Part shown: positions 7,801-42,135 of the stretch, one piece after another
How positions within the stretch are numbered: position 1 is the stretch's first letter
How the letters are laid out: each line of letters begins with the position of its first letter
NCBI GenBank assembly: GCA_902800585.1
Contig: CADCEW010000001.1
Location: 1,994 to 65,993, forward strand
Direction of reading: 5' to 3'
DNA length: 64,000 bases
DNA from: an uncultured Prevotellaceae bacterium
GTDB taxonomy: Bacteria; Bacteroidota; Bacteroidia; Bacteroidales; Bacteroidaceae
Program-made: the position numbers and the translations under genes
Notes under the pieces: generated by a model
Seen by the model: only the letters and a program-made list of their open reading frames with translations
What the model was told of the DNA's origin: nothing
Databases searched by the model: none

Positions 7801-8243
7801 GCATACACCTCACCTTCGACAGCAGAGAACCAGAAGGTGTCACTGAATGTATAGATCAAAGCGCCCACCATAGCAGCGCCTTCGATGGCGATTGTCTTTG
7901 CAAGTGTCAACTGACTCCAGTCCTTGATGAGTAACTTGCGCACCAAATGCGAAATGGTCCAGAACAAGAACAGGATAGTAGCCGCAGACAGTAACGCACT
8001 CATGATGTTCACCATCCGAGCCACTTGCGTTGAGTCACTGGTGAATTGTGAGAACAGGTTTGCCGTGAGCATAAAGAACGGTGCACCAGGTGGATGACCG
8101 ATTTCAAGTTTATAACCTGTAGAGATAAATTCCGGGCAGTCCCAGAAGGAGGCTGTAGGCTCAATTGTAGAGCAATATACGAAAGCGGCTATCAGAAAAC
8201 TGACCCATCCGAGAATATTGTCTATCAGTCTGAATTGTTTCAT
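4860..8243 (-). CDS. DUF2723 large membrane protein, predicted GT-C glycosyltransferase
   Basis: 1127 aa; TIEPTASFWDCPEF, HPPGAPFF, FWFSAVEGEVY, RERDY and TNGDNDTFPLWY motifs typical of the family. Confidence 0.85.
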   Translation of the reverse strand: MKQFRLIDNILGWVSFLIAAFVYCSTIEPTASFWDCPEFISTGYKLEIGHPPGAPFFMLTANLFSQFTSDSTQVARMVNIMSALLSAATILFLFWTISHLVRKLLIKDWSQLTLAKTIAIEGAAMVGALIYTFSDTFWFSAVEGEVYAYSSAFTAIVFWLILKWEDHADEPHSDRWLILIMYMTGLSIGVHLLNLLCLPAIVLVYYYRKFPQSLPKKDLYGSLIALGISIVILAAVLYGVVPGIVQVGGWFELLFVNVLGCPFNTGEIIYIFLLIAITIWAIYETHRDVSEKKQNIAFLLSVAMLGIPFYGHGWSAVIIGIVVLVVLWFILQYKQKNKLLVTARIKNTSLLCMLMIMIGYSSYALIVIRSSANPPMDQNSPEDIFTLGEYLGREQYGQRPLFYGQAYTSQVALEKDGEYCKPVMKKGAPVWQRKEKASPDEKDEYFILRTKDEYEYAQNMFFPRMYSSSHRAAYESWLGGSVDGHEEMYDRCGEMISVKVPSQLENIRFFLSYQCNFMYWRYFMWNFAGRQNDLQGNGELEHGNWLTGFDWFDSWRLGDQNTLPDELKENKGHNVFYCLPLLLGLIGLFWQSWYTRKSRVTVDGKEQTEIEPVGIRQFWVVFFLFFMTGLAIVIYLNQTPMQPRERDYAYAGSFYAFAIWCGMGVAALIDLINRKMKNGQVVIAALVSIAAILVPIQMASQTWDDHDRSGRYTCRDFGQNYLMSLQDEGNPIIFTNGDNDTFPLWYNQDVEGVRTDARVCNLSYLQTDWYIDQMRRPAYDSPSVPITWERIEYCAGTNEYVAIEPDMKQAVLEFYKQEPEQAKAQFGEEPFELKNVLKYWVRSKTAEFHVIPTDTLYMTIDKEAVRQSGMMMATDSIPDKMVISLKGKSALYKGDLMILEMLAECNWKRPIYVAVSVGDENYINLGDNTITEGLTYRITPFTTNAEGAKNFDTKRTYDNVMHRFKFGGANTKGVYLDETVMRMCYTHRRIMAKLAVHLVSEGNDKQAAEVLEYCEKMLPSYNIPHNYTSGSLDMARAWAAMGNEKNAMQLVNQLWKNSLQYVSWYLNLDNQQFDLSEDSCYMHIYILSQLLQLGETVDEQWGQKHEAVLSNVMHAFQDRGGKLGIDQ

Positions 8244-17379: not shown

Positions 17380-18126
17380 ATGAAAAAGTTGTTTTTATTT
17401 TTAGTGGCAGTTCTCGCCATTTCGTTCAGTGCTCACCTTTATGCCTTTACAAGCAATGACAGGGTAGAAGAGAATCGTCCTGTAAAGAGTTTCGAACGTA
17501 TTCGTTTACAAGGTTCTCCAGACATTAAGTACACGCAAGGTAAGACATGCTCTGTCCGTGTGAAGGCTCCTAAGAATATCATCAAGAAAGTGGAAACTCG
17601 TGTAGAGGGCAATTGCTTGGTAGTCAGTTTAAAGGATAACAGGGTATTCTCTTTTAGCGCTATTAAAAACGACGAGATAACAGTCTATGTGACATCTCCC
17701 GATTTGATTGGCGTGGAAGTGCAGGGCTCTGGTGATTTTGAGTGCAAGACATTGTTGGATACGGATAATATGGAAATAAGTCTGCGTGGCTCTGGTGATG
17801 TCAATTTTTCCGACATTATCTGTGATCGAATCAAAACATCCCTTGTCGGTTCTGGAGATATCGACATCAAGAAAGTAACAGCCCAGCAATCATCAGTTGA
17901 ATTGGTCGGCTCTGGTGACGTGGCAGTCAAACAATATAACGTGAAACAGACGCAACTGGAACTGAAAGGCTCTGGTGATATCAAGGTAGTATGTGACCAT
18001 TGTGATGTAGTCAACTGCCGCCTTGTGGGAAGTGGCGATATCACGCTCTCTGGTACTGTCAAGAAACTTAACAAGACCACTCGAGGTTCAGGAGATATTC
18101 ATACAAAAGGTTTGACAATTAGATAA
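17380..18126 (+). CDS. DUF2807 / GIN-domain beta-solenoid protein
   Basis: Signal peptide and repeated GSGD motifs. Confidence 0.9.
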   Translation: MKKLFLFLVAVLAISFSAHLYAFTSNDRVEENRPVKSFERIRLQGSPDIKYTQGKTCSVRVKAPKNIIKKVETRVEGNCLVVSLKDNRVFSFSAIKNDEITVYVTSPDLIGVEVQGSGDFECKTLLDTDNMEISLRGSGDVNFSDIICDRIKTSLVGSGDIDIKKVTAQQSSVELVGSGDVAVKQYNVKQTQLELKGSGDIKVVCDHCDVVNCRLVGSGDITLSGTVKKLNKTTRGSGDIHTKGLTIR

Positions 18127-18231: not shown

Positions 18232-18873
18232 ATGTTTGTATCTTTAGCCGATAACCAAGATATCACAAGGGCAGGCATGATGTATGTCTGTCAGGAATTT
18301 GATGGTACTGTGATGCATCGGGCTGAAGATAAGACAGAATTGATAGAACAATTGAGACAACAAGAAGAGGCTGTTGTTATCCTTGACTATACCCTTTTCG
18401 ATATCAATGACGTGGAGGAACTGGAGATTCTTCACCAGCGTTTTCCTAAGGTACAATGGATATTGTTTAGTGTAGATCTCTCCAATGACTTTGTGCGACG
18501 GGTCATTGCTATCAGTTCGCACTTTAGTGTTTTGTTGAAAGAGTCTCCTATTCAAGAGATACGTGAGTGCCTTATTTACGCCCAACGCCACCAACGTTAT
18601 ATCTGTCAGCGGATGACAGAATTGTTGTTGGCTCCTCAAGTCTCGCAGATGGAAGAGGAAGTAAAACTGACTCCCACGGAGATGGAGATACTGAAGGATA
18701 TCGCTTTGGGCCAGACAACAAAAGAAATAGCGGAACGACGCTTCTCGAGTTTCCATACTGTGAACACCCATCGTAAGAACATCTTCAGGAAACTGGGGGT
18801 CAATAATGTCCATGAGGCTACGAAATATGCCTTACGTGCAGGACTTGTGGACTCTGCAGAATACTATATATAA
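18232..18873 (+). CDS. NarL/LuxR-family response regulator
   Basis: REC domain (ADNQD, ILDY phosphoacceptor, LFS, LLKE) and LuxR HTH (LTPTEMEIL...TTKEIAERRFSSFHTVNTHRKNIFRKLGV). The track's TTG start at 18208 lies in the -7 box TATTTTTG (18203-18210). Confidence 0.9.
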   Translation: MFVSLADNQDITRAGMMYVCQEFDGTVMHRAEDKTELIEQLRQQEEAVVILDYTLFDINDVEELEILHQRFPKVQWILFSVDLSNDFVRRVIAISSHFSVLLKESPIQEIRECLIYAQRHQRYICQRMTELLLAPQVSQMEEEVKLTPTEMEILKDIALGQTTKEIAERRFSSFHTVNTHRKNIFRKLGVNNVHEATKYALRAGLVDSAEYYI

Positions 18874-18895: not shown

Positions 18896-18926
18896 GCTTG
18901 TTTTAGAAAAAACAAGCTTTTTTTTT
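18896..18926 (+). terminator. Intrinsic terminator after the LuxR gene
   Basis: GCTTGTTTT / AAAACAAGC stem followed by T9. Confidence 0.75.
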
Positions 18927-18955
18927 GGTAGTATTATAAAAAAAGCGTATATTTG
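18924..18955 (+). promoter_or_regulatory. Sigma-A promoter for the sensor/GH cluster
   Basis: TTTG 18924-18927, 20 nt, TATATTTG 18948-18955. Confidence 0.7.
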
Positions 18956-18985
18956 CAGATACTAACTGAAATGATATACTTTCCA

Positions 18986-21574
18986 ATGATTAAAAAGTCC
19001 TACTGTATAGTTTTTCTATTACTCTTGGCTCCATGTGTCGTAATGGCTGTGATTCCAGATGTAAAGTTTCGTCGTTTAGATACCCGTGACGGATTGTCGA
19101 ACTCCCAGGTGAATAGTGTCATACGGGATTCCCACGGATATGTTTGGTTGGGTACGCAGTTTGGATTATGCCGTTATGACGGATATCGGTTTAGAACTTT
19201 TTATTCTTTTGAACGTGACACCATGACGTTACGTAGTAATCGTGTTGACAAGATTCAGGAAGGACATGACGGGTGTCTGTGGATAGATCATGGCATGAAC
19301 TATTCCATATATGATCCTGTGACAGAGAAAGTAAACCGTTCTTCTTCCATATGGCTTGCCAAACATGGTATCAAGGGAGGAGTGGAAAGTATGTATGTCG
19401 ACTCGAAGAAAAATTATTGGATTAAGACATACGATAATGGTTTCTTTTATTATGACCCTCATCGTAAATATATCAAGCAAATTCCTTTCGGCTATGGATC
19501 ATTGGAATTCTCTAAGGATTTTGGTATTACCGCCTATGCGGAAACCAAGGAAGGCATGCTGATGGTATCAAACCTTGGAGAATTGATGTGTGTGAATGGT
19601 GAGCAAGGCAAGGTGTTGTGGAAAGAAGACCATGTTAAGAAGAGTCTGAATGCTTATAATGATTATTGGGTTTATGTGGATTATCAGGGGGTTATATGGG
19701 TTATAACCCATTCTGTAGGTACCTATATCTATGTTCCTCAGGAGAGGCGTTGGTATACTTCTATGACAGAACTGATGCGTGCCCAAGGATTTACAGACGT
19801 ACCTGATGACATCATTGTATGGGAAGTCCGGTATGACCAGAAAGGCTTGTTGTGGGTGGCAACTGACCATATGGGCGTTTTGTTGCTTGATTTCAAAAAT
19901 AAGGAATGGCGTCAGTTTACGAATATCAAAGGTGATGAGACATCCTTACCGGATATTACGGCAAAACATCTGTATCAAGACCAACTTGGCAGAATGTGGA
20001 TAACTACCTATAAGAATGGAATAGCGATGAGTGCGGATGCCATGACCAATTTCAATAGTCTTGCATTGGGAGATATCAATGGTATTTGTGAAGACCGTGA
20101 AGGCTATTATTGGTTGGGTCTGAATAGTGGTGGAATCTTAAAGGTAGACCCACAGACACTGGAGGTTGTAGAGAAATATACAAAGCAGACCATTGGAGCA
20201 TCCAGTGATGTCGTTGTAGGTAATTATGCGGCAAGTGACGGAAGTTTGTGGTTTGGAACATGGGAAGGAGGTCTGTTGAAATACAAAGACGGACTGTGGA
20301 AGAACTATACAGTATCTACACCAGGTAGCGCTTTTAAGACTAATAATATTTGGGGTATTACAGAAGACTATTGGGGAAATATCTGGATTGGTGTTCTGGG
20401 TGGTGGAGTAGTACGAATGGATAAGCGTACTGGTAGCCAGCGTTCTTTTACAGAGGACAACTCCAACCTCAAGACAGTATGGACTAATAGTATCTCTCGT
20501 GCTTCCAATGGATGGATATTAGCTGGTAACTCAGAATATTGCGCTCTCATCAATCCTAAGACCATGAAGGTCATCAATCTGGCTAAACCTCACGATGACA
20601 ATACTGTTACCATTTCTTCGGCTACAACGCAGGCGGTGATGGACAGTCATGGTTTGTTATGGCAGGCATCACCTTCTGGAGTGAGTGTGTATGACAGGAA
20701 AGCAGGGCAAATGCAATTATTGGACATGAAATCCGGATTTTATGGCTCCAATGTTGTCGCACTTGCAGAGGATGACCGCCACTCGATGTGGGTAGTCACC
20801 GATCATGGTATTTCTAATGTTACACCACAGAAGGAAGAGGATGGACACTGGGTTTTTGCTGTGCGCAGTTATAATGACCGTGATGGACTGCAACCGGGTC
20901 CGTTCAATCAACGTGCTATTTGTTATACACGTACTGGTTATTTGTTAGTAGGAGGACAGGATGGACTGGATATTATCAATACCAGAAATCTGGATGACAG
21001 TGGAAATGATGAAAAGCCAGTATTCAGTGGTTTGGTCCTCTTTAATGATGAGGTTGAGGTCGGTGCTAAATATAATGGGCGTATCCTTTTAAAGAAAGCA
21101 CTGGACTTGGAACGTTCCATTACCTTGAAATCCAGCGAGAACCAGTTTACGATACAAATGGCATCAAATAATGGTGGCGCTAAAAACCATACCCGTTTTG
21201 TCTATCGTCTAAAAGGTTTTAATGACAAATGGATTAAAACGACATCCTCTAATTCTGACATCACATATATGGGACTTCCTGCAGGGAGTTATACCCTTTG
21301 TGTGCGAATGTTGAAAGATGACGGTACAATGGGCGAAACAGAAAGTCAACTGGACATTACCATAAAAGGTCCGTGGTATACATCATGGTGGGCATTTCTC
21401 ATATATGTGTTGATATTGGGACTTGCCATTTGGTATTGGTTGCAAAGAAAGCAAAAGAAACAACAGTTCACACCCCAGCAGGTTGAAGAGAAAGAGGAAG
21501 TACCAGAGGAGGAAGATACTCCAGAGGAGTGTGATGACGTGGAAGAGGCAATTATATTGGATGATGAGGAATAA
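18986..21574 (+). CDS. HTCS-type beta-propeller (Reg_prop) plus Y_Y_Y sensor, one TM, no cytoplasmic kinase; short acidic tail
   Basis: Signal peptide, DGLSNSQV, RYDGYRF, GD-type propeller repeats, Y_Y_Y (FVYRLKGFNDKW...LPAGSYTL), PWYTSWWA TM, stop about 45 aa later. Confidence 0.88.
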   Translation: MIKKSYCIVFLLLLAPCVVMAVIPDVKFRRLDTRDGLSNSQVNSVIRDSHGYVWLGTQFGLCRYDGYRFRTFYSFERDTMTLRSNRVDKIQEGHDGCLWIDHGMNYSIYDPVTEKVNRSSSIWLAKHGIKGGVESMYVDSKKNYWIKTYDNGFFYYDPHRKYIKQIPFGYGSLEFSKDFGITAYAETKEGMLMVSNLGELMCVNGEQGKVLWKEDHVKKSLNAYNDYWVYVDYQGVIWVITHSVGTYIYVPQERRWYTSMTELMRAQGFTDVPDDIIVWEVRYDQKGLLWVATDHMGVLLLDFKNKEWRQFTNIKGDETSLPDITAKHLYQDQLGRMWITTYKNGIAMSADAMTNFNSLALGDINGICEDREGYYWLGLNSGGILKVDPQTLEVVEKYTKQTIGASSDVVVGNYAASDGSLWFGTWEGGLLKYKDGLWKNYTVSTPGSAFKTNNIWGITEDYWGNIWIGVLGGGVVRMDKRTGSQRSFTEDNSNLKTVWTNSISRASNGWILAGNSEYCALINPKTMKVINLAKPHDDNTVTISSATTQAVMDSHGLLWQASPSGVSVYDRKAGQMQLLDMKSGFYGSNVVALAEDDRHSMWVVTDHGISNVTPQKEEDGHWVFAVRSYNDRDGLQPGPFNQRAICYTRTGYLLVGGQDGLDIINTRNLDDSGNDEKPVFSGLVLFNDEVEVGAKYNGRILLKKALDLERSITLKSSENQFTIQMASNNGGAKNHTRFVYRLKGFNDKWIKTTSSNSDITYMGLPAGSYTLCVRMLKDDGTMGETESQLDITIKGPWYTSWWAFLIYVLILGLAIWYWLQRKQKKQQFTPQQVEEKEEVPEEEDTPEECDDVEEAIILDDEE

Positions 21575-21589
21575 TATAATACGAAATAT

Positions 21590-24500
21590 ATGAAAAAGTT
21601 ATTCATACTCATATTATTGATTGTTGGTGTCGCTGCTCCGTCGTCAGCGGAGATTGGTGATATGAAATTCGATCGTTTGGACACGCGTGATGGATTGAGT
21701 AACTCACAGATACTTTGTATCCGGCGGGATTCCAAAGGTTTTGTGTGGATAGGTACGCCATATGGATTAAACCGATATGACGGTTATCGTTTTAAGTCCT
21801 TCTATTCCTATCCGAAAGACACAACGACCCTTCGTAGTAATTATGTCGATGAGATATATGAAGCGTATGACGGTAAGATATGGCTGCATCAGGGTATGAG
21901 TTATGTCGTTTATGATCCTGTTACAGAAAAATTTAACCGTCATCCAGAGGCAATACTACGTGAATTGGGTATGGATCATGGTATAGAGCGTTTGTTTATA
22001 GACTCTCATAAGCATTTCTGGGTGAAGGGAACAGACGCAGGTGTCTGGCATATTGATCCCTATACTAAGAAAGTCAAGGAATATCGTTCCGGATTTGGTA
22101 GACAGGAATTCAATAGCGACATTGGTGTTTCCAGTTTCGCAGAATTTGGCAAAAGTGTGTTGGTTGCCTCCTATAATGGCGATATCGTTTGTTTCAATCG
22201 TGAGAAAGACTGGATCAGTTGGAAAGATACCTACCTGCATCGCAAGGGATTCGTCAGCAATCAAGACTGTCGTTTGAAACTGGATCGTCAGGGAAATATC
22301 TATGCAGTCACGATGCAGTCCACGTTTATCAAGATGAATGGTCGTGGTCGCTGGTATCATTCTCTCCCAGAATTGCTTCGTGTTTGGGGATTTGAGGATG
22401 CTTCGAACATACAGAGTGTGTGGGATGTTACTTTAGACAAGAAAGGACGTATGTGGATTTCTACAGACCATTATGGCATCTTTGTTATTGATAAAAAAAC
22501 AAAAGAGATGCGTCAGTTCCTGAATGACAAGAATGACCCCACGAGTATCTGTGACAATACAATACGAATGATTTATTGTGACCAGTTGGGACGTCTGTGG
22601 ATAGGTTCTTACATGAATGGTCTGAGTACTTATGCTGAAAGTTCGTCGAATTTCCGTAATATTGATTTGGGAAACATCAATACAGTATGTGTCGATAAGG
22701 CTGGTTATTATTGGCTGGGTACGAATGACAAAGGTTTTATCCGTTATGATCCCCGTACGACAGAGCAGGTGATTTATGATAAAGCTAATAGTCCTATCGG
22801 TTCGAATACGATGGTCAGTTCGTTGGCAGGTAGTGATGGTTCTATATGGTTTGGTACTTATGAAGGTGGTCTTATTCGTATTAAGAACGGACAAGTGAAG
22901 AATTTCCGTGCTACGGGACAACCTACCGACCTCGCCAATGATAATATATGGACAATCTATGAGGACCAATGGGGATATATCTGGTTAGGAACTCTGGGCG
23001 GTGGTGTGCAGCGTATTAATCCGAAGACAGAAAAGTTTGATATTCCTATAAACACTCATAATTCTATTATACCCAGTGACTATGTGTCTTCCATTACGCG
23101 GACACAGAAAGGATGGATGATGGTCGGTCACTCTCTATATTATTCAATTATCAATCCGAAAACTCGAAAGGTCATCAATCGTAATATAGAGGATAACAAG
23201 AATGGAATTGCTATTACGGGAAACTCAATCGCCTGTCTACAGGACAGTAGAGGTTTGGCTTGGCAAGGTTCCGCTTCTGGTGCTACAATATGGGATCCCA
23301 AGACCAACGAGGTGTATCTGTTAGATATGCGTTCGGGATTGATGGGTTCAACAGTAAATGGTATTATAGAAGATAACCGTCATTCTATATGGTTGATTAC
23401 AGATCATGGCGTCTCGAATATTGTGCCTCAGAAAGAGTGGGATGAAAAATGGAATTTTGTGCTTCGTAGTTTCAATAACCGTGACGGTCTGCAAAACGGT
23501 CCGTTCAATCAGCGTGCTATCTGCTATGCGCCAGACGGAAAGATTCTGGTTGGTGGTCAAGGTGGTTTGGATATTATCGATCCTCAAAAGATGGGTAAGG
23601 GTAGGTTCAAGGAGATTCCTTTGTTCAGTGGATTAAAGGTATCTGGCCAGGAAGTGGTCGTTGGCGAGAAAATCGATGGACGTGTTATCTTGGATGAAGC
23701 CCTTGATGTGTGTCGTGAGTTCAGTCTTGCCTTTGACGATGAGTTTACAGTAGAGATGGCAAGTAATAGTGGTGAGGCTCACAACCGCTCTCGTTTTGTC
23801 TATAAGATGGCAGGTTATAATGATGTATGGAGAAAGACAGAGGAGGTGAATCCGAATATTACCTATATGAGTCTTCGTGCAGGTAGTTATTATTTGTGTG
23901 TCCGTATGCTGAATGACGATGGAACATTCGGAGAGAACGAGAGCCGGATTGCCATTACCATCCGTCCGCCATTATGGCGTACGCGTTGGATGGTTCTGCT
24001 TTATATGTTATTGATAGCCGTTGCCGCCTGGATATGGCATAAATGGTTTATCAAGCGTCAGGAGAATCGGATGAAGGTAGAGACTACGCGTCGTGAGTTG
24101 GAGAAGCAGCAATGGATGAATGAGATGCGTATGCAACTCATTAACGAGCATGGAGGAGGTGATGGACAATACACGGTACAGCATGAGCAGGTGCCTGTGA
24201 GTTTGCAGCCTTCTGATTTGGTAACGTTTGTCCGTGAGTTCTGTGAGAATTACGAATCTCCTGTCAAGGATAAACGTGTTAAAGTAACTTTTGTTTCTCC
24301 TGTTAATGAACTGCATGCTAATATTGACACTCAGCAGTTGAGTAGGGTGTTTGAGATTCTATTTCAGAATGCTGCGACATTCTCTCCAGAAAACTGTCAG
24401 ATTAGTGTCGGAGTCGCACGTACACAGAACAACGAGGCACAGATACAAGTGGCAGATAATGGTATTGGTATTCATGACCAATATAAGGCTCATGCCTTTG

Positions 24501-24676
24501 ATCCTATTGTTAATGGAGAAGGTGCTAATTTGGATAAAGTGAAGGCGGTCATTGATGCTCATCACGGTGATATCCGTATTGAGGATAATCCAGGTGGTGG
24601 TACTATCTTTGTCATCACACTGCCAGCCGATGAGATTGTCGAGGAGGCTGTGATGATGGACGATGATGATGAATAA
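21590..24676 (+). CDS. HTCS-type propeller/Y_Y_Y sensor with a degenerate HATPase_c domain; no H-box, REC or AraC
   Basis: Paralogue of the preceding gene; PLWRTRW TM; QNAATF N-box, DNGIGI G1, GGGTIF G3; G2 degenerate (GEGANL). Confidence 0.85.
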   Translation: MKKLFILILLIVGVAAPSSAEIGDMKFDRLDTRDGLSNSQILCIRRDSKGFVWIGTPYGLNRYDGYRFKSFYSYPKDTTTLRSNYVDEIYEAYDGKIWLHQGMSYVVYDPVTEKFNRHPEAILRELGMDHGIERLFIDSHKHFWVKGTDAGVWHIDPYTKKVKEYRSGFGRQEFNSDIGVSSFAEFGKSVLVASYNGDIVCFNREKDWISWKDTYLHRKGFVSNQDCRLKLDRQGNIYAVTMQSTFIKMNGRGRWYHSLPELLRVWGFEDASNIQSVWDVTLDKKGRMWISTDHYGIFVIDKKTKEMRQFLNDKNDPTSICDNTIRMIYCDQLGRLWIGSYMNGLSTYAESSSNFRNIDLGNINTVCVDKAGYYWLGTNDKGFIRYDPRTTEQVIYDKANSPIGSNTMVSSLAGSDGSIWFGTYEGGLIRIKNGQVKNFRATGQPTDLANDNIWTIYEDQWGYIWLGTLGGGVQRINPKTEKFDIPINTHNSIIPSDYVSSITRTQKGWMMVGHSLYYSIINPKTRKVINRNIEDNKNGIAITGNSIACLQDSRGLAWQGSASGATIWDPKTNEVYLLDMRSGLMGSTVNGIIEDNRHSIWLITDHGVSNIVPQKEWDEKWNFVLRSFNNRDGLQNGPFNQRAICYAPDGKILVGGQGGLDIIDPQKMGKGRFKEIPLFSGLKVSGQEVVVGEKIDGRVILDEALDVCREFSLAFDDEFTVEMASNSGEAHNRSRFVYKMAGYNDVWRKTEEVNPNITYMSLRAGSYYLCVRMLNDDGTFGENESRIAITIRPPLWRTRWMVLLYMLLIAVAAWIWHKWFIKRQENRMKVETTRRELEKQQWMNEMRMQLINEHGGGDGQYTVQHEQVPVSLQPSDLVTFVREFCENYESPVKDKRVKVTFVSPVNELHANIDTQQLSRVFEILFQNAATFSPENCQISVGVARTQNNEAQIQVADNGIGIHDQYKAHAFDPIVNGEGANLDKVKAVIDAHHGDIRIEDNPGGGTIFVITLPADEIVEEAVMMDDDDE

Positions 24677-24696
24677 TATTGATAAATAAAAATAAG

Positions 24697-27696
24697 ATGA
24701 AGATTTTAAGAACAATGATGACAGGAGTTTTGTCGCTGACGGTAGTCATGCTAATGGCAGCCGATTATACCGTTGATGGCAATTCTATCACAATTCCTGT
24801 TAAGAACGTGAAGGCAGGTGGTGCCAAGGTGGTACGTCTGCAAGTGATTAACGACAACATCATCCGTGTGCAGGCGACATCAGAAGATGCGTTGCCACAA
24901 AAGCAGAGTCTGATGATTGTGGAACAGACGGCAAAGCCGAAGTTCACAGTGAGTGAAGATGATGACAAGGTGATTGTCAAGGCGCAAAACGTAGAGGCTC
25001 GTGTTGATGTGGAGTCGGGTAGAGTTACTTTCTATGATGCCAATGGTAAGGAGTTGTTGAAAGAAGCCAAGGATGGTAAGCAATTCAAGAATTTCACTGT
25101 TCCTGAACGCGAATTTGGTATCAAAGGTGGGGCGCCATTGACAGAAGCCATGAAGCACGGTCTTACCTGGCAGATGAAATTTGACAGTCCTGACGATGAG
25201 GCTTTCTATGGTTTAGGACAGCATCAGAGTGAGGAGTTCAATATGAAAGGTAAGAACGAGGATCTCTTCCAGTATAATACTAAAGTCAGCATTCCTTTTG
25301 TTCTCTCTAATAAGAATTATGGTATCTTGTGGGATAGTTATAGTTATTGCCGTTTTGGTAATCCAAACGACTATCTGCAACTCAATCGTGCCTTTAAGCT
25401 CTATGATCGTCAGGGAAAGGAAGGACATCTGACAGGGACCTATATCGATCGCAATGGTAAGAAACTCGTGCGTGATGAGGATAGTATCTATTATGAATAT
25501 GGAACACCTGCGAAGTCGGAAATTGCGTTGAAGACAGATAATGGCGGTATCAAGAATTTGCCTCAAGGTTTCAATCTGCAAGGAGCCAATGTGGTTTATG
25601 AGGGTTTCATTGAACCTGAATGCTGCGGCAAGTGTACAGGCAAGGCTGTCGACTATCAGTTCATCCTCTATTATGCAGGATATGTCAAAGTGTATATTGA
25701 TGGTAAGGAGGTGGTGCCTGAGCGTTGGCGTACAGCTTGGAATCCGAATACTTATAAGTTTACCGCCAAGGTACGCAAGGGCGTGAAGAATCAGTTGCGT
25801 ATTGAATGGCTGCCCGATGGCGGAGAGAGTTATTGTGGCTTGCGTGTAGCTGAGCCCCGTAGTGAGGAGGAACGCGGTCAACTGAGTATCTGGAGTGAGA
25901 TGGCTCGTGACATGGATTATTACTTCATTGCTGGTAATAACTTCGATGAAGTCATCAGCGGCTATCGTACTTTGACGGGTAAGGCTTCCCTCTATCCAAA
26001 ATGGGTGTTGGGCTTCTGGCAGAGTCGCGAGCGTTATCAGACCTCTAAGGAGATAGAAGATAACCTTGCTGAATTCCGTAAGCGTCATATTCCTATTGAC
26101 AATATCGTACAGGACTGGAACTACTGGCCTGAGGATCAGTGGGGAAGTCATCAGTTTGAGGCTTCGCGCTATCCCAATCCGCAGGCGATGCTTGATAGTG
26201 TTCATGCTATGCACGGACGTTTCATGATTTCTGTTTGGCCGAAGTTCTATGTGAATACGGAGAACTACAAAGAACTTGATAAGAACGGATGGATGTATAA
26301 CCAGTCACCGACGGATGATATTCACGACTGGGTAGGTCCTGGTTATAAGAATGGTTTCTATGATGCCTATGATGCCGGTGCCCGTAAGATGTTCTGGCGA
26401 CAGATGGATGAGAATCTCTATTCGAAGTATAATCACGATGGTATTGCTGGCGTGGATGCCTGGTGGATGGATGCTTCAGAGCCTAATGTACGTGACTGTA
26501 CGCCGATGTGGTATCGTAAAGCTCTTAGCGGGCCTACAGCGTTAGGAACGTCAACAGAGTTCTTCAATGCTTATTCCACCGTCAATGCCGATGCTATCTA
26601 TAATGGACAGCGTAGTGTATGGAAGGGCAAAGACAACGAGCCTCGTGTATTCTTGCTGACGCGTAGTGGTTTTGCTGGTGAGCAGCGTTTCTCTACTGCA
26701 ACATGGAGTGGTGATATCGGTACCCGTTGGGAAGATATGCGTGCTCAGATGACTGCAGGTTTGAATTATTCGATGTCAGGTATTCCCTTCTGGGGTATGG
26801 ATCAGGGTGGCTTCTGTGTAGAGAACCGTTATGTGGCAGCACAGCAGATATTTAATAACACTGGGGTTGAGAACGAAGACCTGAAAGAGTGGCGTGAGTT
26901 ACAGGCACGTTGGAGTCAGTTTGGTGCCTTTATTCCATTGTTCCGGGTACATGGACAGTGGCCTACTCGTGAGATATGGAACATTGCCCCCGACAATCAT
27001 CCTGCCTATAAGTCGTTTGTCTATTATGACAAACTACGTTATCGTCTGATGCCTTATCTGTACAGTCTTGCTGGCTGGGCTCACTTCAAGGACTACACGT
27101 TGATGCGTGCCCTTATCATGGACTTCAACGGAGATAAGGAAGTAGAGAATATCGGTAATCAATGGATGTTCGGTCCTGCTCTGATGGCATGTCCTGTCGG
27201 TTATTACAAGGCTCGCAACCGTAGTGTCTACTTCCCGAAGCAGTGCGGATGGTATAACCTTTATACTAACGAGTATGTGGAAGGTGGACAGTCGCTCGTC
27301 GTCGATGCACCTTATGAGCAGATTCCTGTCTTTGTCCGCGAAGGAGCTATTATTCCCTTCGGTCCTGAGATGGAGTGGTGTGACGAGAAGCCTGCTGAAC
27401 TTATCAATCTCTATATCTATGCTGGACAGAATGGTGCTTTCCAACTCTATGAGGACGAAGGTGTGAACTATAACTACGAGAAGGGTAAGTTTGCAACCAT
27501 TGATATCACCTATGACGATGCTGCCAAGACAGTAAAATTTGGTGCCCGTAAGGGTAACTTCAATGGTATGCTGAAGAATCGTCGCTTCAACATCGTACTC
27601 ATCACGAAAGATGCACCGAAGCCCCTTAACCTTGTCGATCCTCAAGGTATCATGGTACAGTACAATGGTAAGGAAGTTAGTGTGAACATTAAATAA
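24697..27696 (+). CDS. GH31 alpha-xylosidase with a PA14-like insert (BoGH31A-like architecture)
   Basis: Signal peptide; IVQDWNYW, WWMDASEP nucleophile, WSGDIG acid/base, FRVHG. Confidence 0.88.
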   Translation: MKILRTMMTGVLSLTVVMLMAADYTVDGNSITIPVKNVKAGGAKVVRLQVINDNIIRVQATSEDALPQKQSLMIVEQTAKPKFTVSEDDDKVIVKAQNVEARVDVESGRVTFYDANGKELLKEAKDGKQFKNFTVPEREFGIKGGAPLTEAMKHGLTWQMKFDSPDDEAFYGLGQHQSEEFNMKGKNEDLFQYNTKVSIPFVLSNKNYGILWDSYSYCRFGNPNDYLQLNRAFKLYDRQGKEGHLTGTYIDRNGKKLVRDEDSIYYEYGTPAKSEIALKTDNGGIKNLPQGFNLQGANVVYEGFIEPECCGKCTGKAVDYQFILYYAGYVKVYIDGKEVVPERWRTAWNPNTYKFTAKVRKGVKNQLRIEWLPDGGESYCGLRVAEPRSEEERGQLSIWSEMARDMDYYFIAGNNFDEVISGYRTLTGKASLYPKWVLGFWQSRERYQTSKEIEDNLAEFRKRHIPIDNIVQDWNYWPEDQWGSHQFEASRYPNPQAMLDSVHAMHGRFMISVWPKFYVNTENYKELDKNGWMYNQSPTDDIHDWVGPGYKNGFYDAYDAGARKMFWRQMDENLYSKYNHDGIAGVDAWWMDASEPNVRDCTPMWYRKALSGPTALGTSTEFFNAYSTVNADAIYNGQRSVWKGKDNEPRVFLLTRSGFAGEQRFSTATWSGDIGTRWEDMRAQMTAGLNYSMSGIPFWGMDQGGFCVENRYVAAQQIFNNTGVENEDLKEWRELQARWSQFGAFIPLFRVHGQWPTREIWNIAPDNHPAYKSFVYYDKLRYRLMPYLYSLAGWAHFKDYTLMRALIMDFNGDKEVENIGNQWMFGPALMACPVGYYKARNRSVYFPKQCGWYNLYTNEYVEGGQSLVVDAPYEQIPVFVREGAIIPFGPEMEWCDEKPAELINLYIYAGQNGAFQLYEDEGVNYNYEKGKFATIDITYDDAAKTVKFGARKGNFNGMLKNRRFNIVLITKDAPKPLNLVDPQGIMVQYNGKEVSVNIK

Positions 27697-27716
27697 TAAT
27701 CAAAACATAATAACAA

Positions 27717-30164
27717 ATGCATAACAGACTAATATGGGTGGCAGTCATGCTGTTGACTGCCTTGACAACGCAGGCTCGTGAGCGGAAGAATTTTGATGCA
27801 GGATGGCGCTTTATCCTCGCCGACTCAGCACAGATGGCTACTCCGACGTATAATGATACCCATTGGCGGATACTCGATTTGCCCCACGACTGGGCGATAG
27901 AGGGCGATTTCTATGCTGGCAATCCCAGTGGCGCAGGTGGTGGTGCACTTCCTGGCGGTATCGGATGGTATCGTAAACACCTCTCTCTTGATTGTGAGGC
28001 AGTACCAGGCAATCGTTACTTTATTGAGTTTGATGGTGTCTATATGAACTCTACTGTCTATGTCAACGGACAGGAGGTAGGGCATCGTCCTTATGGTTAT
28101 TCAAGTTTTGAGTATGATATTACGAAATATCTGAAACAGGGTGATAATGTCATTGCCGTGAGGGTTGATAACTCCGACCAGCCAAATAGTCGTTGGTATA
28201 GTGGTTGTGGCATCTACCGCCATGTATGGTTTACTCAAACGAATCACGTACACGTAAAACATTGGGGTGTACATGTCGAGACCGATGCGAAGACAGGACA
28301 AGTCAAAGTGGAGGTGGAATTGGCAAAGTATCCTGCCATCAACATCCATCGTCCGACTATCAAGAATACTGTCTTCGACGCCAATGGTAAGGAAGTGGGT
28401 TTGAAAGTGAAGAATCCTCATCTCTGGTCTGTGGAGGACCCTTATATATATAAGGTACGTACGCAAGTGTTGGTCAATGGCAAGGTCGTCGATGAGGTCT
28501 GGACGACAACAGGTTTCCGTGACTTTAAGTTTGATGCGGAGACTGGTTTCTGGTTGAATGGCAAGAACTTTAAGTTAAACGGTGTCTGTGAACACCATGA
28601 CTTCGGCTGTTTCGGTGCTGCTGTCAACGAGGATGCCATGCACCGTAAGTTGTCGAAACTGAAGGCAATGGGTGTCAATAGCATCCGTTCCTCACATAAT
28701 CCTCCTGCTCCTGAGTTGCTGAACATGTGCGACACGATGGGTATTATCGTGATGGATGAGTCGTTTGACATGTGGCGACGGAAGAAGACAGCAGGTGACT
28801 ATGCCCGTTTCTTCGATGAGTGGCATGAGAGCGACCTCACCGATCTGGTCTTGCGCGATCGCAATCATCCTTCTGTAATGATGTGGTCTATTGGTAACGA
28901 GGTACTGGAGCAGTGGTCGAGTGCTGAGGCTGATACGTTGACGCTCGAACAGGCTAACCTGATTCTGAATGCAGGTCATGATGCCTCTACGTTGGCAAAG
29001 GAGGGAGAACTGTCAGTACAATCCCTGCTTACACAGCATCTTGCCGAAATTATCAAGCGATATGATACGACACGTCCTATCCTTGCCGGTTGTAACGAGC
29101 CTAATCCCAATAACCATCTTTTCAAGAGCGGTGCGATTGATATCATCGGTTTTAACTACCATCATCAGTGGGTGAAGGATGTTCCCAAGAACTTCCCAGG
29201 CAAACCCTTTATCTTCTCGGAGAGTGTTTCTGCACTGCAGACACGCGGTTACTATAAGATGCCTTCCGATGAAATCACATGGGCACCGAAGGAGTGGTGG
29301 ATGCCCTATACCGATCCTTCGTATATGTGCTCTTCTTACGATAACTTCCATGCCTCATGGAGTTCTACCCATGAGGAGACTTGGGACGTGGTGAAGCATA
29401 ATGCCTTTGTGGGTGGACAGTATATCTGGACGGGCTTTGATTATATCGGTGAACCGACGCCCTATGGTTTCCCTGCACGCTCCAGTTATTTTGGTATCAT
29501 CGACCTTGCCGGTTTCCCGAAGGATACCTATTATATGTATCAGAGTGAGTGGACGACGAAGCCAGTGCTGCACCTCTTCCCTCATTGGAACTGGATACCA
29601 GGTGATGAGATTGATATGTGGTGCTACTATAACAATGCCGATGAAGTGGAGTTATTCATTAATGGCAAGAGTCAGGGTGTGCGTCGTAAGACAGGTGAAA
29701 ATCCTGAGGGACGTTACGCCATGCATAATACCAAAACGAAGTTAAACACGGAATACCATGTCGGTTGGCGTGTCACTTTCGACCCTGGTGAAGTGAAGGT
29801 AGTGGCTCGCAAGGACGGAAAGATTGTTGGTGAACAGACGATTAAGACGGCTGGTGCACCTGCAAAGATACGTTTGTCGAAAGACTATCAGGGTAAGAAT
29901 ACCACCTTTGTCACTGCTGAAGTGGTGGATAAAGACGGAAACCTCTGTCCTTGGGCTGAGGATCAGATCTATTTCATCTACGAAGGTGATGGGAAGGTAC
30001 TGGGAACAGACAATGGTTGTCAGACTTCTATGGAGAATTTCAAGGCTCCACAGCGTAAAGCCTTCTTTGGTAAGTGTATGGTAGTGGCAAGTGGTAATGG
30101 TTCTATTACTGCCAAGTCGCCGACATTGCAGTCTGATGTGATACAATTGAGAGTTAATAGATAA
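27717..30164 (+). CDS. GH2 beta-galactosidase
   Basis: LPHDWAI, FDGVY, SRWYSGCGIYRHV, WSIGNE acid/base, FSE nucleophile region, WTGFDYIGEP. Confidence 0.9.
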   Translation: MHNRLIWVAVMLLTALTTQARERKNFDAGWRFILADSAQMATPTYNDTHWRILDLPHDWAIEGDFYAGNPSGAGGGALPGGIGWYRKHLSLDCEAVPGNRYFIEFDGVYMNSTVYVNGQEVGHRPYGYSSFEYDITKYLKQGDNVIAVRVDNSDQPNSRWYSGCGIYRHVWFTQTNHVHVKHWGVHVETDAKTGQVKVEVELAKYPAINIHRPTIKNTVFDANGKEVGLKVKNPHLWSVEDPYIYKVRTQVLVNGKVVDEVWTTTGFRDFKFDAETGFWLNGKNFKLNGVCEHHDFGCFGAAVNEDAMHRKLSKLKAMGVNSIRSSHNPPAPELLNMCDTMGIIVMDESFDMWRRKKTAGDYARFFDEWHESDLTDLVLRDRNHPSVMMWSIGNEVLEQWSSAEADTLTLEQANLILNAGHDASTLAKEGELSVQSLLTQHLAEIIKRYDTTRPILAGCNEPNPNNHLFKSGAIDIIGFNYHHQWVKDVPKNFPGKPFIFSESVSALQTRGYYKMPSDEITWAPKEWWMPYTDPSYMCSSYDNFHASWSSTHEETWDVVKHNAFVGGQYIWTGFDYIGEPTPYGFPARSSYFGIIDLAGFPKDTYYMYQSEWTTKPVLHLFPHWNWIPGDEIDMWCYYNNADEVELFINGKSQGVRRKTGENPEGRYAMHNTKTKLNTEYHVGWRVTFDPGEVKVVARKDGKIVGEQTIKTAGAPAKIRLSKDYQGKNTTFVTAEVVDKDGNLCPWAEDQIYFIYEGDGKVLGTDNGCQTSMENFKAPQRKAFFGKCMVVASGNGSITAKSPTLQSDVIQLRVNR

Positions 30165-30181
30165 TAGTAAAGAGATAATAG

Positions 30182-32503
30182 ATGAAACGTGCGTTATTAT
30201 TCTTTTGTGTAGTAGGTTGCGCCTTTACCACCACTACCACCTATGCCCAGTTGCAGACTTCAGCAGGTATCCAGTACCTGCAGTGTATGCCCAAAGATCA
30301 GTCGGGCGATTTCTCCGACCTGAGTAATACCTATTTCCTGGCCGACTCGCTGGCTGCGTTCGATGCAGCGAAAGGGGAGGGACAACTTAACTGGAAACGT
30401 TATCGTCTGTCACCTCGTCAGGCATTCAACCTCAACGGCTACTGGCCAGTGCGGATGCAGATGCTCGACTTCCCTGACACGCAGTATGATAACGACCCGA
30501 ATCTTTCTTTCAAGATTGATTTTGTCAGTCCCCGTTGTGTCCGTATCCGCATGGCGACATCACCCATTGAGGCTCCAAGAAAGGATGAAGAGAGCCTGAT
30601 GCTGGCAGGTCCTGTGCCTACGACCTCTGCCTGGCAGATGAAGAGCGATGGCAAAGCCATCACTTACACGACCGATTATGGTACGGTGGAGATACAGAAA
30701 TACCCGTGGCGCATTGTACTGAAGGACAAGAATGGAAAGATACTGACCCGTACGCGCCATATCATCGACAATGATTCCAGTCAGGTGAAACTCCTGCCGT
30801 TCTCGTTTATCAAGCGTGGTTCCGACAACTCTCGCAGTGTCAACCCCGTGCTGACCATTGCCCCGGGTGAGCGCATCTATGGTTGTGGTGAGTCGTTTGG
30901 TGCACTGAACAAGGTCGGACAGAAGGTACAGATCATGGTGACCGACCCGCAGGGACCAGAGACAGACGGACAGTATAAGCCTGTACCGTTCTATTTCTCC
31001 AATCGTGGTTATGGCATCTTCATGCACACCTCGGCACCCGTCACTGCTGATTTCGGTGCTTCGTATATCGGAGCCCAGCGTCTGTTTATGGCTGACGAGC
31101 AGATAGATTTCTTCGTATTCTTTGGATCTCCCAAAGAAATCCTGAACGAATACACTAACATCACAGGCAAGTCGCCGATGCTGCCGTTGTGGACCTTCGG
31201 TACCTGGATGAGTCGTATTACCTATTTCTCACAAGAAGAGGGTCTGGAGATTGCTAAACAACTCCGTCAAAACAAGATCCCAAGTGATGTCATCCATTTC
31301 GATACAGGATGGTTTGGTGTTGACTGGCAGTGTGACTATGAGTTTGCCAAAGACCGTTTCAAGGATCCGAAGGGTATGCTCGACCAACTGAAACGTGACG
31401 GTTTCCATACTTGTCTGTGGCAGTTGCCATACTTTACCCCCAAGAACCGTTTCTTCCGCGAACTCGTCGATGGCGGTATGGCGGTGAAGAATGCCGCAGG
31501 TAGCCTGCCTTACGAGGATGCTGTGTTGGATTTGAGTAATCCCAAAACGGTGAAATGGTATCAGGATAAGATTGCCAATCTCATCAAACTCGGTGTCGGA
31601 GTCATTAAGTGTGACTTTGGTGAGGCTGCTCCGTACGATGGTTTCTATTATAGTGGTCGTGGTGGTCTGTACGAGCATAATCTCTATCCTGTCCGTTATA
31701 ACAAAGCCTTGTTCGAGGCTGTGAAGGCGAATAGTGGTGAGGGTGTCATCTGGGCACGCAGTGCCTGGGCTGGTTCTCAGCGTTATCCGTTGCATTGGGG
31801 TGGTGATGCTGCTACGACCAATACGGGTATGTTGGGTGACTTGCGTGGCGGACTCTCCTTCGGACTTAGTGGTTTCTCCTTCTGGAGTCACGACATGGGC
31901 GGCTTTGTTACTGCTTCTCCTGAGGATATCTATCGTCGTTGGCTGCCCTTTGGATTCTTGAGCAGTCATACTCGTGCGCATGGTGCACCTCCTACAGAGC
32001 CTTGGTTGATTAGCGAGTCGTTCACAAAGGCTTTCCGTCAGTCGGCGGAGATGAAGTATAAGCTCATGCCGTATGTCTATGCACAGGCGAAAGACTGCTC
32101 TGAGCGTGGCTTGCCAATGGTGCGTGCGTTGTTGGTAGAGTTCCCTGAAGACCCAGGTGCATGGCTTGTCGAAGATGAGTATATGTTTGGTTCGCAAATA
32201 CTGGTTGCCCCGTTGTTGGAGAGTGGTGATAGCCGTACCTGTTACTTGCCAAAGGGTAAATGGATTGACTATCAGACAGGCAAAGTCTATGAAGGAGGCT
32301 ATCAGACCATCAAGGTGGGTGAGATTCCATGTGTCATCCTCGTTCGTGATGGTAGTCTCATTCCGCATGTACCTCTTGCTCAGCGTACTGACCAGATACA
32401 ATGGGACAAGGTAGAGTGGAAGGCATATAAAGCCGATGCAAAGAAATGCACAGGTTTGCTCTATAAGCCTGGCGACAGTCAGATACAAACCATCGAGCAA
32501 TGA
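30182..32503 (+). CDS. Second GH31 glycoside hydrolase (YicI-like alpha-xylosidase)
   Basis: IHFDTGW, IKCDFGE nucleophile, HWGGD acid/base, WSHDMGGF, SHTRAHG. Confidence 0.88.
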   Translation: MKRALLFFCVVGCAFTTTTTYAQLQTSAGIQYLQCMPKDQSGDFSDLSNTYFLADSLAAFDAAKGEGQLNWKRYRLSPRQAFNLNGYWPVRMQMLDFPDTQYDNDPNLSFKIDFVSPRCVRIRMATSPIEAPRKDEESLMLAGPVPTTSAWQMKSDGKAITYTTDYGTVEIQKYPWRIVLKDKNGKILTRTRHIIDNDSSQVKLLPFSFIKRGSDNSRSVNPVLTIAPGERIYGCGESFGALNKVGQKVQIMVTDPQGPETDGQYKPVPFYFSNRGYGIFMHTSAPVTADFGASYIGAQRLFMADEQIDFFVFFGSPKEILNEYTNITGKSPMLPLWTFGTWMSRITYFSQEEGLEIAKQLRQNKIPSDVIHFDTGWFGVDWQCDYEFAKDRFKDPKGMLDQLKRDGFHTCLWQLPYFTPKNRFFRELVDGGMAVKNAAGSLPYEDAVLDLSNPKTVKWYQDKIANLIKLGVGVIKCDFGEAAPYDGFYYSGRGGLYEHNLYPVRYNKALFEAVKANSGEGVIWARSAWAGSQRYPLHWGGDAATTNTGMLGDLRGGLSFGLSGFSFWSHDMGGFVTASPEDIYRRWLPFGFLSSHTRAHGAPPTEPWLISESFTKAFRQSAEMKYKLMPYVYAQAKDCSERGLPMVRALLVEFPEDPGAWLVEDEYMFGSQILVAPLLESGDSRTCYLPKGKWIDYQTGKVYEGGYQTIKVGEIPCVILVRDGSLIPHVPLAQRTDQIQWDKVEWKAYKADAKKCTGLLYKPGDSQIQTIEQ

Positions 32504-41406: not shown

Positions 41407-42108
41407 ATGAAAAAAGATGAAACATTTGTAAAAGGAGGTAACAATCCTTATGCACGTTCAAACGGAGGTCAACGTTCAGGTAATGAGACTTATATCCCTG
41501 GTATGAATGACTATACACCAGGCAGTGCTCCTGCTCCTGCAGCAGCAAATCCAAAGGCAAAGCCCAATACTCCTGTCGTAGGCTTCTTGTATTCCATCTC
41601 CCGTAAGGGCATTGGCGAGTATTGGCCTCTTCATTTGGGAACTAACACGATTGGTAGGTCAGAAGACAATGATATCTGTCTGAAGGAGATGTCTGTGTCA
41701 AGCAAGCATGCTACCTTGAGCATCAAGCAGATGAAGAGTACTCACAAACTGATTGCCAGTATCCGTGATACAGGTTCAAAGACTGGTATGTATCTGAATG
41801 ATGAAGAGTTGGACTATGAGAATCATACTTGTAAGGCCAACGACATCATCACTGTGGGTGCCAATTATAAATTACTGCTTATCTTGATTGATGCAGAAGA
41901 ATATGGACTCTCTGTATCTGAAGAATTCGTAGAGGATAAGGATGCCGCTGAGGCTCCTGCTCCTTATCAGGCACGTGGCGGTTTCGGAGACGACGCGACA
42001 CAGAATAATTTCCGTCCATATAGCTCTGATCACCGTAATGTAGATACTGGTACGGTAGATTTGAGCGGTGCAGGCTTTGATGAGCCAGGTGGAACAGAGA
42101 TGATGTAA
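41407..42108 (+). CDS. Soluble FHA-domain protein with disordered N- and C-terminal tails
   Basis: NTIGRS, SVSSKH, RDTGSKTG and DIITVG FHA motifs; no TM. Confidence 0.9.
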   Translation: MKKDETFVKGGNNPYARSNGGQRSGNETYIPGMNDYTPGSAPAPAAANPKAKPNTPVVGFLYSISRKGIGEYWPLHLGTNTIGRSEDNDICLKEMSVSSKHATLSIKQMKSTHKLIASIRDTGSKTGMYLNDEELDYENHTCKANDIITVGANYKLLLILIDAEEYGLSVSEEFVEDKDAAEAPAPYQARGGFGDDATQNNFRPYSSDHRNVDTGTVDLSGAGFDEPGGTEMM

Positions 42109-42135
42109 AGATTGATATAGAAAGCAACGAAAGAA

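Follow-up and report, generated by a model that had tools for sequence, protein, structure and literature searches.

Two adjacent glycan-type sensors derived from hybrid two-component systems and lacking the phosphorelay in a predicted xyloglucan side-chain operon of Prevotellaceae

Hybrid two-component systems (HTCSs) are the textbook sensors of complex glycans in Bacteroidota, and their defining trait is an internal His–Asp relay. In a 64,000-nucleotide stretch of DNA from an uncultured Prevotellaceae bacterium (GenBank assembly GCA_902800585.1, contig CADCEW010000001.1, positions 1,994 to 65,993 of the forward strand; the whole stretch is called the window below), two adjacent genes encode sensors, A and B, that have the periplasmic part of an HTCS and lack the relay. 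How might such sensors pass on a signal? The relay parts have been lost and a C-terminal peptide has been kept, so A and B probably signal by protein contacts rather than by phosphotransfer. On the evidence given below, we put at about even chances the reading in which A and B, functional descendants of HTCS sensors without a phosphorelay, lie in a xyloglucan side-chain operon and signal by protein contact to a DNA-binding partner. The features of the two genes are as follows.

18986..21574, plus strand: sensor A, 862 aa (intact open reading frame (ORF), Pfam, AlphaFold2 (AF2) model)
21533..21571, plus strand: tail of sensor A, DDVEEAIILDDEE, core VEEAIILD (conservation among homologues)
21590..24676, plus strand: sensor B, 1028 aa (intact ORF, Pfam, AF2 model)
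23972..24151, plus strand: transmembrane (TM) helix of sensor B and its continuation, the conserved juxtamembrane helix RRELEKQQWMNEMRMQL, residues 795–854 (AF2 model, alignment to the HTCS P0282)
24206..24625, plus strand: catalytic and ATP-binding (CA; HATPase_c) domain of sensor B, residues 873–1012 (Pfam, AF2 model)
24635..24673, plus strand: tail of sensor B, IVEEAVMMDDDDE, core VEEAVMMD (column statistics, conservation)

The two proteins are paralogues, 45% identical across 844 aa. Gene callers also start A at the ATG at 18971, which gives a protein of 867 aa. The description in an earlier note on this DNA, namely a paralogue pair with intact ORFs, the domains listed, a broken G2 box in B, shared tails and downstream GH31-GH2-GH31 genes (GH, glycoside hydrolase), is correct throughout.

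Of the HTCS kinase, sensor B retains a CA domain with a shortened lid and, without the His, the first half of helix 1 of the dimerization and histidine phosphotransfer (DHp) domain. Pfam finds Reg_prop, Y_Y_Y and HATPase_c (62 bits) and no match to HisKA, Response_reg, HTH_AraC or HTH_18; NCBIfam adds only partial matches to the CA domains of classical kinases. The periplasmic part matches the BT4663 and BT3049 sensors both by sequence (4a2l, E=1e-66) and by fold (4A2M, 3V9F). In the AF2 model (predicted local distance difference test, pLDDT, 85.5), the propellers and Y_Y_Y are followed by one uninterrupted helix (residues 795–854), with no DHp hairpin. The CA domain (residues 873–1012) hangs on a flexible 20-aa linker, and the tail (residues 1016–1028) is disordered, with a pLDDT of ~31. 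The helix segment KQQWMNEMRMQL aligns with KQTFFTNLSHEL of P0282, a canonical 1300-aa HTCS from the representative search. In this alignment the SHEL of the canonical protein is RMQL in B, residue Met848 (24131–24133) occupies the position of the phospho-His, and ~45 residues, comprising the remainder of DHp helix 1 and the whole of helix 2, are gone. Among 114 B-family sequences, the column equivalent to the His holds M in 43, A in 28, L in 15, R in 11, K in 7, V in 3, H in 2 and T in 2, and no other conserved cytoplasmic His is found outside the CA domain. Since the acceptor His is absent and the DHp mostly missing, B appears unable to run a His–Asp relay in cis, and at the level of sequence and model such phosphotransfer is excluded. 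The earlier note had proposed signalling without His–Asp phosphotransfer, and the exclusion of phosphotransfer in cis agrees with it. A non-canonical kinase with a hidden His, of the HisKA_3 or HWE type, was also considered and is rejected because there is neither a conserved His nor a helical hairpin.

In sensor A, Pfam finds Reg_prop and Y_Y_Y and nothing else, with no match to HisKA, Response_reg, HTH_AraC, HTH_18 or HATPase_c. The protein consists of a signal or anchor segment (residues 1–22), a double propeller with Y_Y_Y (~23–795), a TM helix (~797–827) and a disordered acidic cytoplasmic end of 34 residues (829–862; AF2, model pLDDT 75.7). The A clade is monophyletic in the tree. One of its members, P0029, retains a CA domain together with the tail, and its gene adjoins SusD, the xyloglucan-binding domain SGBP_B_XBD and GH5.

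With the Bacteroides HTCSs BT4663 (PDB 4A2L/4A2M) and BT3049 (3V9F), A and B have in common the double beta-propeller with Y_Y_Y, a single TM helix and the same genomic role beside glycan-degrading genes, and the juxtamembrane helix and CA domain of B can be aligned with those of a canonical HTCS. Unlike them, A and B lack the phospho-acceptor His, a complete DHp, the receiver (REC) domain and AraC, A lacks a cytoplasmic domain, and both carry an additional conserved C-terminal peptide. The proteins stop 13–16 aa beyond the CA domain (B) or the linker (A). Because the acceptor His, REC and AraC were all tested for and are absent, A and B are placed, on domain content, outside the HTCS family as defined, though derived from it. 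The signature of the family to which B belongs is Reg_prop, Y_Y_Y, TM, a RRELEKxQWMxEMR helix, a short-lid CA domain and the tail, encoded directly 5' of GH31; B has every one of these elements. The word 'decapitated', used of the pair in the earlier note, fits the lost relay parts but not the whole of B, in which the CA domain is still HTCS-like and the N-box and G1 residues are invariant.

That CA domain raises the question of whether B is still an enzyme. In the 114 sequences, Asn927 of the N-box, Asp956 and Gly960 of G1, Gly993 and the DNPGGG motif are invariant. B could be a split kinase, whose CA domain, free to move on its flexible 20-aa linker, phosphorylates in trans, the acceptor being either the DHp His of a second kinase or of an HTCS or, in the manner of SpoIIAB or RsbW, a Ser/Thr of a partner. 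The invariance of the ATP site and the tethering of the domain are what such a kinase would show. However, the ATP lid of B is 8–10 aa shorter than that of WalK or of HTCSs, which removes the phosphate-contacting basic residues. The G2 glycines are conserved at just 45–74%, and the box is broken in B of the window (GEGANL; family consensus, GEGIGL). In addition, the DHp-bearing sister sensor of relatives, described below, has Glu and not His at the acceptor site, and neither a REC nor a STAS partner accompanies the locus consistently. The GHKL Ser kinases and anti-sigma factors (SpoIIAB, RsbW), in which a stand-alone CA-like domain binds a STAS partner and phosphorylates it, are compared with B by analogy only: B matches the HATPase_c of classical kinases, and genes for STAS proteins or sigma factors do not consistently accompany the related loci. 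We therefore regard a split kinase as distinctly unlikely.

Another parallel comes from pseudokinases. DivL of Caulobacter is a pseudo-histidine kinase that signals through partner binding. Among solved CA domains, DivL (PDB 4Q20, E=3e-9) is the second-best match to B, after YycG (2.3e-9). Like B, DivL has no acceptor His and a shortened ATP lid. DivL is a cytoplasmic, PAS-linked protein whose DHp is complete, with Tyr in place of His, whereas B senses in the periplasm, as a glycan-type sensor, and most of its DHp is missing. The binding of a phosphorylated response regulator is not ascribed to B.

What A and B have in common in the cytoplasm is the tail. Its consensus, [IV]-E-[ED]-A-[VE]-h-h-[DE] (h, hydrophobic residue), runs on for 0–10 residues, most of them acidic. 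The comparison set comprises 80 related loci; related loci bear numbers with the prefix L. Among A homologues, 97/120 have the strict motif within their last 20 aa, and among B homologues 90/120 do (187/240 together); it is C-terminal in 0/1631 other ORFs of the 80 loci, and occurs 3 times anywhere in 561,355 residues. By these counts, the sharing of the tail is far beyond chance, and the conservation that the earlier note wished to see checked is present. In 27 orthologues of A, conservation reaches at least 90% at each of E853, E854 and A855, and the ~30 aa that link the TM helix to the tail are hypervariable. In B, the motif follows the CA domain after 3–12 residues, and the conserved residues are found at [IV]1017 in 111, E1018 in 102, A1020 in 109 and [DE]1024 in 103 of the 114 sequences.

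The hydrophobic positions of the tail interchange among I, L, M and V, synonymous changes persist inside it, and it is present in an orphan copy of A, indicating that selection acts on the protein and not on the DNA. For the same reasons, and because the orphan A precedes a convergent gene, the possibility that the tail is kept merely as a nucleotide signal by which the following gene is translated is rejected. A conserved peptide that ends a flexible, disordered linker has the layout of a docking motif, by analogy with known tethers. The chemoreceptors Tar and Tsr end in such a tether, the pentapeptide NWETF, with CheR and CheB as partners. Like the tail of A, NWETF is a short conserved peptide at the extreme C-terminus of a receptor after a variable flexible linker; its sequence is unrelated to the tail of A and B, and the comparison is an analogy only. 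As to origin, the tail may derive from the acidic linker after the CA domain of an HTCS or from strand beta-1 of REC (hLhVDD), a resemblance over 10 aa that is too short for statistics. A tail subtype, EEAEIIE as opposed to EEAVLMD, occurs with a LacI-family regulator in 15/16 cases, a figure confounded by phylogeny and by the adjacency threshold and not relied on here.

Could A and B instead be remnants of a decaying HTCS, with tails that resemble each other through inherited noise? Progressive loss of domains is obvious across the family, and a tail derived from the acidic linker or from REC strand beta-1 would fit such a history. The closest relative is L086, with identities of 95% for A and 93% for B and with neither LacI nor LuxR beside the two genes. 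In comparison with it, however, the ratios of nonsynonymous to synonymous substitution rates (dN/dS) are 0.041 for A and 0.061 for B, like those of the neighbouring genes (GH31a 0.028, GH2 0.052, DUF5686 0.047), indicating purifying selection on both sensors. The dN/dS comparison had been suggested in the earlier note. The ORFs are intact in hundreds of species, the tail is conserved beside a freely varying linker while synonymous change within it continues, and both genes are transcribed. Recent decay into pseudogenes is rejected by the dN/dS values, the breadth of conservation and the contigs assembled from RNA; decay as such is effectively refuted by the dN/dS values, the specificity of the tail and the same contigs, and we give it next to no credence.

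The family is large. A-type proteins of 860–867 aa recur down to 65% identity (2555 matches at E<1e-20), and B-type proteins of 1020–1060 aa recur below 50% identity (3586 matches at E<1e-20). For B, a scan with one genome per species gives at least 576 loci; nearly all bear the label Prevotella or Prevotellaceae, and most come from rumen metagenome-assembled genomes (MAGs). When the last 224 residues of B are compared with 1.8 billion representatives clustered at 50%, 15 clusters match the whole module; beyond these there are generic CA domains only, some of them from full-length HTCSs. Since the whole module is confined to so few clusters, the cytoplasmic module of B is, by its distribution in sequence databases, a Prevotellaceae invention. 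No full HTCS is found at the locus among the 80 species. The earlier note had held that its proposal would fall if close relatives had a full-length HTCS here and the truncations were recent and unconstrained, or if the tail motif were not conserved; the relatives share the truncated architectures. The truncations are old and constrained and the tail is conserved, so that objection fails. Public annotation calls the family 'ligand-binding sensor domain-containing protein' or 'hypothetical protein', and a literature search found no published description of it.

What is the sensors' genomic setting? They stand in a series of genes on the same strand, whose other members and control elements are as follows.

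14719–17301, plus strand: DUF5686 gene, same-strand series
17380–18126, plus strand: DUF2807 gene, same series
18232..18873, plus strand: LuxR-type response regulator, 213 aa (Pfam: REC, below cutoff, and GerE helix-turn-helix (HTH))
18896..18927, plus strand: intrinsic terminator after the LuxR gene (9-bp stem, then a T9 run)
18948..18955, plus strand: Bacteroidetes-type -7 promoter box TATATTTG, the operon's own promoter (A-B-GH)
24697–27696, plus strand: GH31, predicted alpha-xylosidase (Pfam)
27717–30164, plus strand: GH2, predicted beta-galactosidase (Pfam)
30182–32503, plus strand: GH31, predicted alpha-xylosidase (Pfam)
after the second GH31, plus strand: membrane protein like those of the major facilitator superfamily (MFS), same series

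The GH31-GH2-GH31 genes (24697..32503) are predicted to encode xyloglucan side-chain enzymes. In nearly all 80 loci, B lies directly 5' of GH31(-GH2-GH31), and the usual chromosomal site of the locus is beside DPP4-RlmL-DUF5686. The box TATATTTG also precedes A in L086, in L062 and in the orphan-A locus L087, and the terminator hairpin upstream of A is also kept in L086. Many metagenomes of bovine gut and rumen contain the window sequence, and it is also present in metatranscriptomes from sheep and cattle. RNA contigs span the A-B junction (19193–22186) and the B-GH31a junction (23364–26129); these are assembler contigs, in which DNA carry-over is possible. In run X25 an RNA contig begins at 18984, and the contig depth over A-B is 30–44. 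A and B are thus co-transcribed with GH31 and GH2 from their own promoter. In GH2, all four metatranscriptome assemblies carry one extra nucleotide after 28183 and lack one at 28190 (window 28183–28190), a compensated 7-nt frame difference relative to the window.

Two other observations concern other parts of the window. At 41407–43764, a gene for an FHA-domain protein and one for a eukaryote-like Ser/Thr protein kinase open a same-strand gene series, unrelated to the sensors. At 4860–8243 on the minus strand, an 1127-aa protein with a TMEM260-like O-mannosyl-transferase domain is encoded.

If A and B signal by contact, which protein do they contact? The nearest candidate is the LuxR-type regulator, which the earlier note had named as a possible partner of the tail. 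Its gene adjoins A on the same strand, and the order response regulator-A-B is found in L062 and response regulator-(LacI)-B in L001–L008. The protein itself matches GerE with 57.5 bits and Response_reg with 28.7 bits, against a cutoff of 30.2. By reading of the sequence, the residues of REC corresponding to D57, S87 and K109 are kept and the first Asp of the acidic pocket is replaced by Ala. However, a terminator and a separate promoter for A lie between the regulator and A, and the depth in X25 is zero over the regulator as compared with 30–44 over A-B. The regulator is missing between DUF2807 and A in L086, whose A is 95% identical. It is present in ~15/80 loci and absent from ~65/80, whereas the tail is present in nearly all. 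On account of the terminator with its separate promoter, the zero depth in X25 and the absence from L086, the LuxR protein is probably not part of the A/B unit; as an obligate partner it was judged unlikely and set aside. That it is the cognate output of A and B, docked through the tail, is in our judgement highly improbable, and for the tail it is a poor candidate.

Another candidate appears in the relatives. A LacI-family regulator of ~340 aa (74–98% identity between loci) is encoded in 43/80 loci, mostly immediately 5' of A or B. Its stop codon overlaps the start of B in L060, L063, L071 and L074. In six species (L022, L024, L028, L030, L033 and L034; proteins P0204, P0211, P0220 and P0237), LacI and B are fused in frame into proteins of 1373–1376 aa. 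At the junction (...IRETSAK-TLLKKAVMVLAFLL...), the signal peptide of B has been turned into a first TM helix. The fusions occupy two groups of the tree, and a single cluster at 90% identity contains both fused and unfused forms, which come from many independent contigs. A LacI-type operator, CGTAAACGTTTGCG, is present once per locus in 40/41 LacI-containing loci, ~20 nt ahead of the LacI promoter's -7 box (e.g. L004:8850). In a relative whose A is 81% identical, the order is LuxR regulator-LacI-GH5-A-B-GH31-GH2-GH31; the LacI-GH5 segment has, we infer, been lost from the genome of the window, and the partner would therefore not lie in the window's locus.

Two side observations concern the relatives. 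B is 66–67% identical in amino acids to B of L004 and L007, as compared with 87–90% for GH31a, 92–94% for GH2 and 95–97% for GH31b; L004 and L007 carry LacI in place of A, and the regulatory segment seems either to be exchanged or to outpace the operon in its evolution. In 38–40/41 loci, the LacI gene has a divergent neighbour, an extremely conserved element of ~90 nt (e.g. L004:8690-8800, minus strand), in which a minus-strand -7 box TATCTTTGCA is followed by an A/U-rich block GAATGAGTAATGAATAGTTGATAATAAGTTAGTTAGAAA and then by a 14-bp hairpin and a T-run. From this layout it looks like a conserved small RNA gene; it has no match to an Rfam family and was not found in the window.

Sugar repressors of this kind are known to be controlled by proteins. 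CcpA, of the LacI family, is controlled by HPr-Ser46-P, and Mlc is sequestered by PtsG. These systems are precedents for control of a sugar repressor through protein contact or membrane capture, although A and B have no homology to HPr or PtsG and LacI is absent from the window. By analogy, the adjacency and the fusions of LacI and B suggest that LacI may be controlled by protein contact or membrane capture, as CcpA or Mlc is.

A third type of sensor, which follows or replaces B in six loci, ends in a DNA-binding domain. It consists of Reg_prop, Y_Y_Y, a TM helix, a degenerate DHp and an AraC HTH, and is encoded at the following positions.

L032:3941-6976, AraC-ended sensor
L036:13088-16141, AraC-ended sensor
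L039:3644-6706, AraC-ended sensor
L070:12969-16148, AraC-ended sensor
L046:9938-13114, AraC-ended sensor
L076:10001-13120, AraC-ended sensor

Its cytoplasmic part aligns with the DHp and the AraC end of a canonical HTCS, with CA and REC deleted, and its H-box reads NEELRIPF, in which Glu replaces the phospho-His. B (CA, no DHp) and this sensor (degenerate DHp and AraC, no CA) have opposite sets of domains and so look, from their alignments, like complementary halves of an HTCS, both incapable of phosphotransfer. Both the LacI::B proteins and the AraC-ended sensors of relatives join a periplasmic sensor to a DNA-binding domain without a phosphorelay, as do membrane-tethered one-component regulators of the ToxR/CadC type (compare the 'putative one component system BT4673' in the title of PDB 3OTT). 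Unlike ToxR/CadC-type regulators, A and B of the window have no DNA-binding domain. In function, A and B would resemble pseudokinases and other partner-binding sensors, and membrane-tethered one-component regulators.

On the contact-signalling reading, the periplasmic ligands of A and B would be oligosaccharides derived from xyloglucan, bound probably by dimers and possibly by an A/B heterodimer. The signal would be relayed by protein–protein contact, a DNA-binding partner docking on the CA domain and on the conserved tail. The partner would vary by species, being either the His-to-Glu DHp-AraC sister sensor or a repressor of the LacI family, whose gene adjoins B, is translationally coupled to it or is fused with it. 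In the genome of the window, it would be encoded outside the locus, or the output would be non-transcriptional. As regards the ligand, a Segatella copri 'HTCS'-GH2-GH31 cluster comparable to this locus is induced on xyloglucan (PMC11784079); the supplement of that paper holds no data on NQ544_01410.

The possible pairing of A with B in a heterodimer is suggested indirectly by their constant adjacency, their co-transcription, one A::B fusion in a single MAG and the known dimeric HTCS sensor. This in-frame fusion (L057:7424-13123, 1899 aa), from which the acidic tail of A and the spacer are deleted, could be real or an assembly artefact. A more specific proposal is that the heterodimer senses xyloglucan oligosaccharides and, via the nucleotide-binding CA domain and the tail peptide, captures or releases LacI or the His-to-Glu DHp-AraC sensor; glycan sensors of the HTCS type would, in Prevotella, have been rebuilt repeatedly as phosphorylation-independent transmembrane switches. 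We offer this tentatively, as a possibility with the balance somewhat against it.

Several observations weigh against signalling by contact with a DNA-binding partner. About half of the loci have no adjacent LacI. In the 64-kb window there is no LacI homologue, no copy of the operator CGTAAACGTTTGCG within two mismatches and no AraC-ended sensor; a LacI anywhere in the window, or its operator at the promoter of A, was searched for and not found. A and B are nevertheless constrained, so LacI cannot be the universal partner. The orphan A (L087:10001-12583) is 90% identical to A of the window and keeps tail and promoter; it is surrounded by menaquinone-synthesis genes, with no B or GH31 nearby, and the protein is found on 16 contigs. 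The tail has been lost from A independently in at least five lineages and is therefore dispensable for A in those species. In single-chain AF2 models of A and B, the tail is unstructured and docked nowhere, which fits a partner-binding peptide and proves nothing. Finally, the invariant ATP-binding residues mean that B could still use ATP catalytically.

The earlier note had also named the tail as a possible degron and the sensors as a possible glycan-binding decoy, and the results speak neither for nor against these two ideas. In a rival reading the sensors are modulators or decoys: A, and perhaps B, would carry no signal of their own but would form mixed dimers with a complete regulator encoded elsewhere, either a full HTCS or an AraC-ended sensor, or compete with it for ligand, and would thus tune its sensitivity in the manner of truncated decoy receptors. 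HTCS sensors are reportedly dimers, a finding credited to Lowe et al. in 2012. A has no folded cytoplasmic domain, and in the lineages just mentioned no tail either. The locus family contains every intermediate in the reduction of an HTCS: CA domain and tail, tail only, nothing, and degenerate DHp with AraC. In addition, no output domain is encoded in the window. However, a purely periplasmic decoy would have no need for a tail, or for ATP-site residues in the CA domain, as strongly conserved as these. B is the sole sensor in at least 17 loci, with no LacI, LuxR regulator or second sensor beside it, and the 80 species have no full HTCS at the locus. A decoy is therefore unlikely in our estimate, though less so than a split kinase, and signalling by contact is the reading that we prefer.

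A large, conserved and expressed family of Prevotella, the dominant rumen genus, has retained the HTCS sensor and discarded the relay. If A and B signal by contact, the family would show the conversion of two-component hardware to one-component or partner-switch logic; if they do so as a heterodimer, it would represent a new coupling of periplasmic glycan sensing to LacI or AraC regulators. The label 'HTCS' in the annotation of polysaccharide utilization loci (PULs) can conceal proteins that are incapable of phosphotransfer. Growth on xyloglucan without an identifiable PUL has been reported (PMC11107044); for rumen Prevotella/Xylanibacter, in which the regulation of xyloglucan use has so far had no explanation, A and B offer a concrete candidate.

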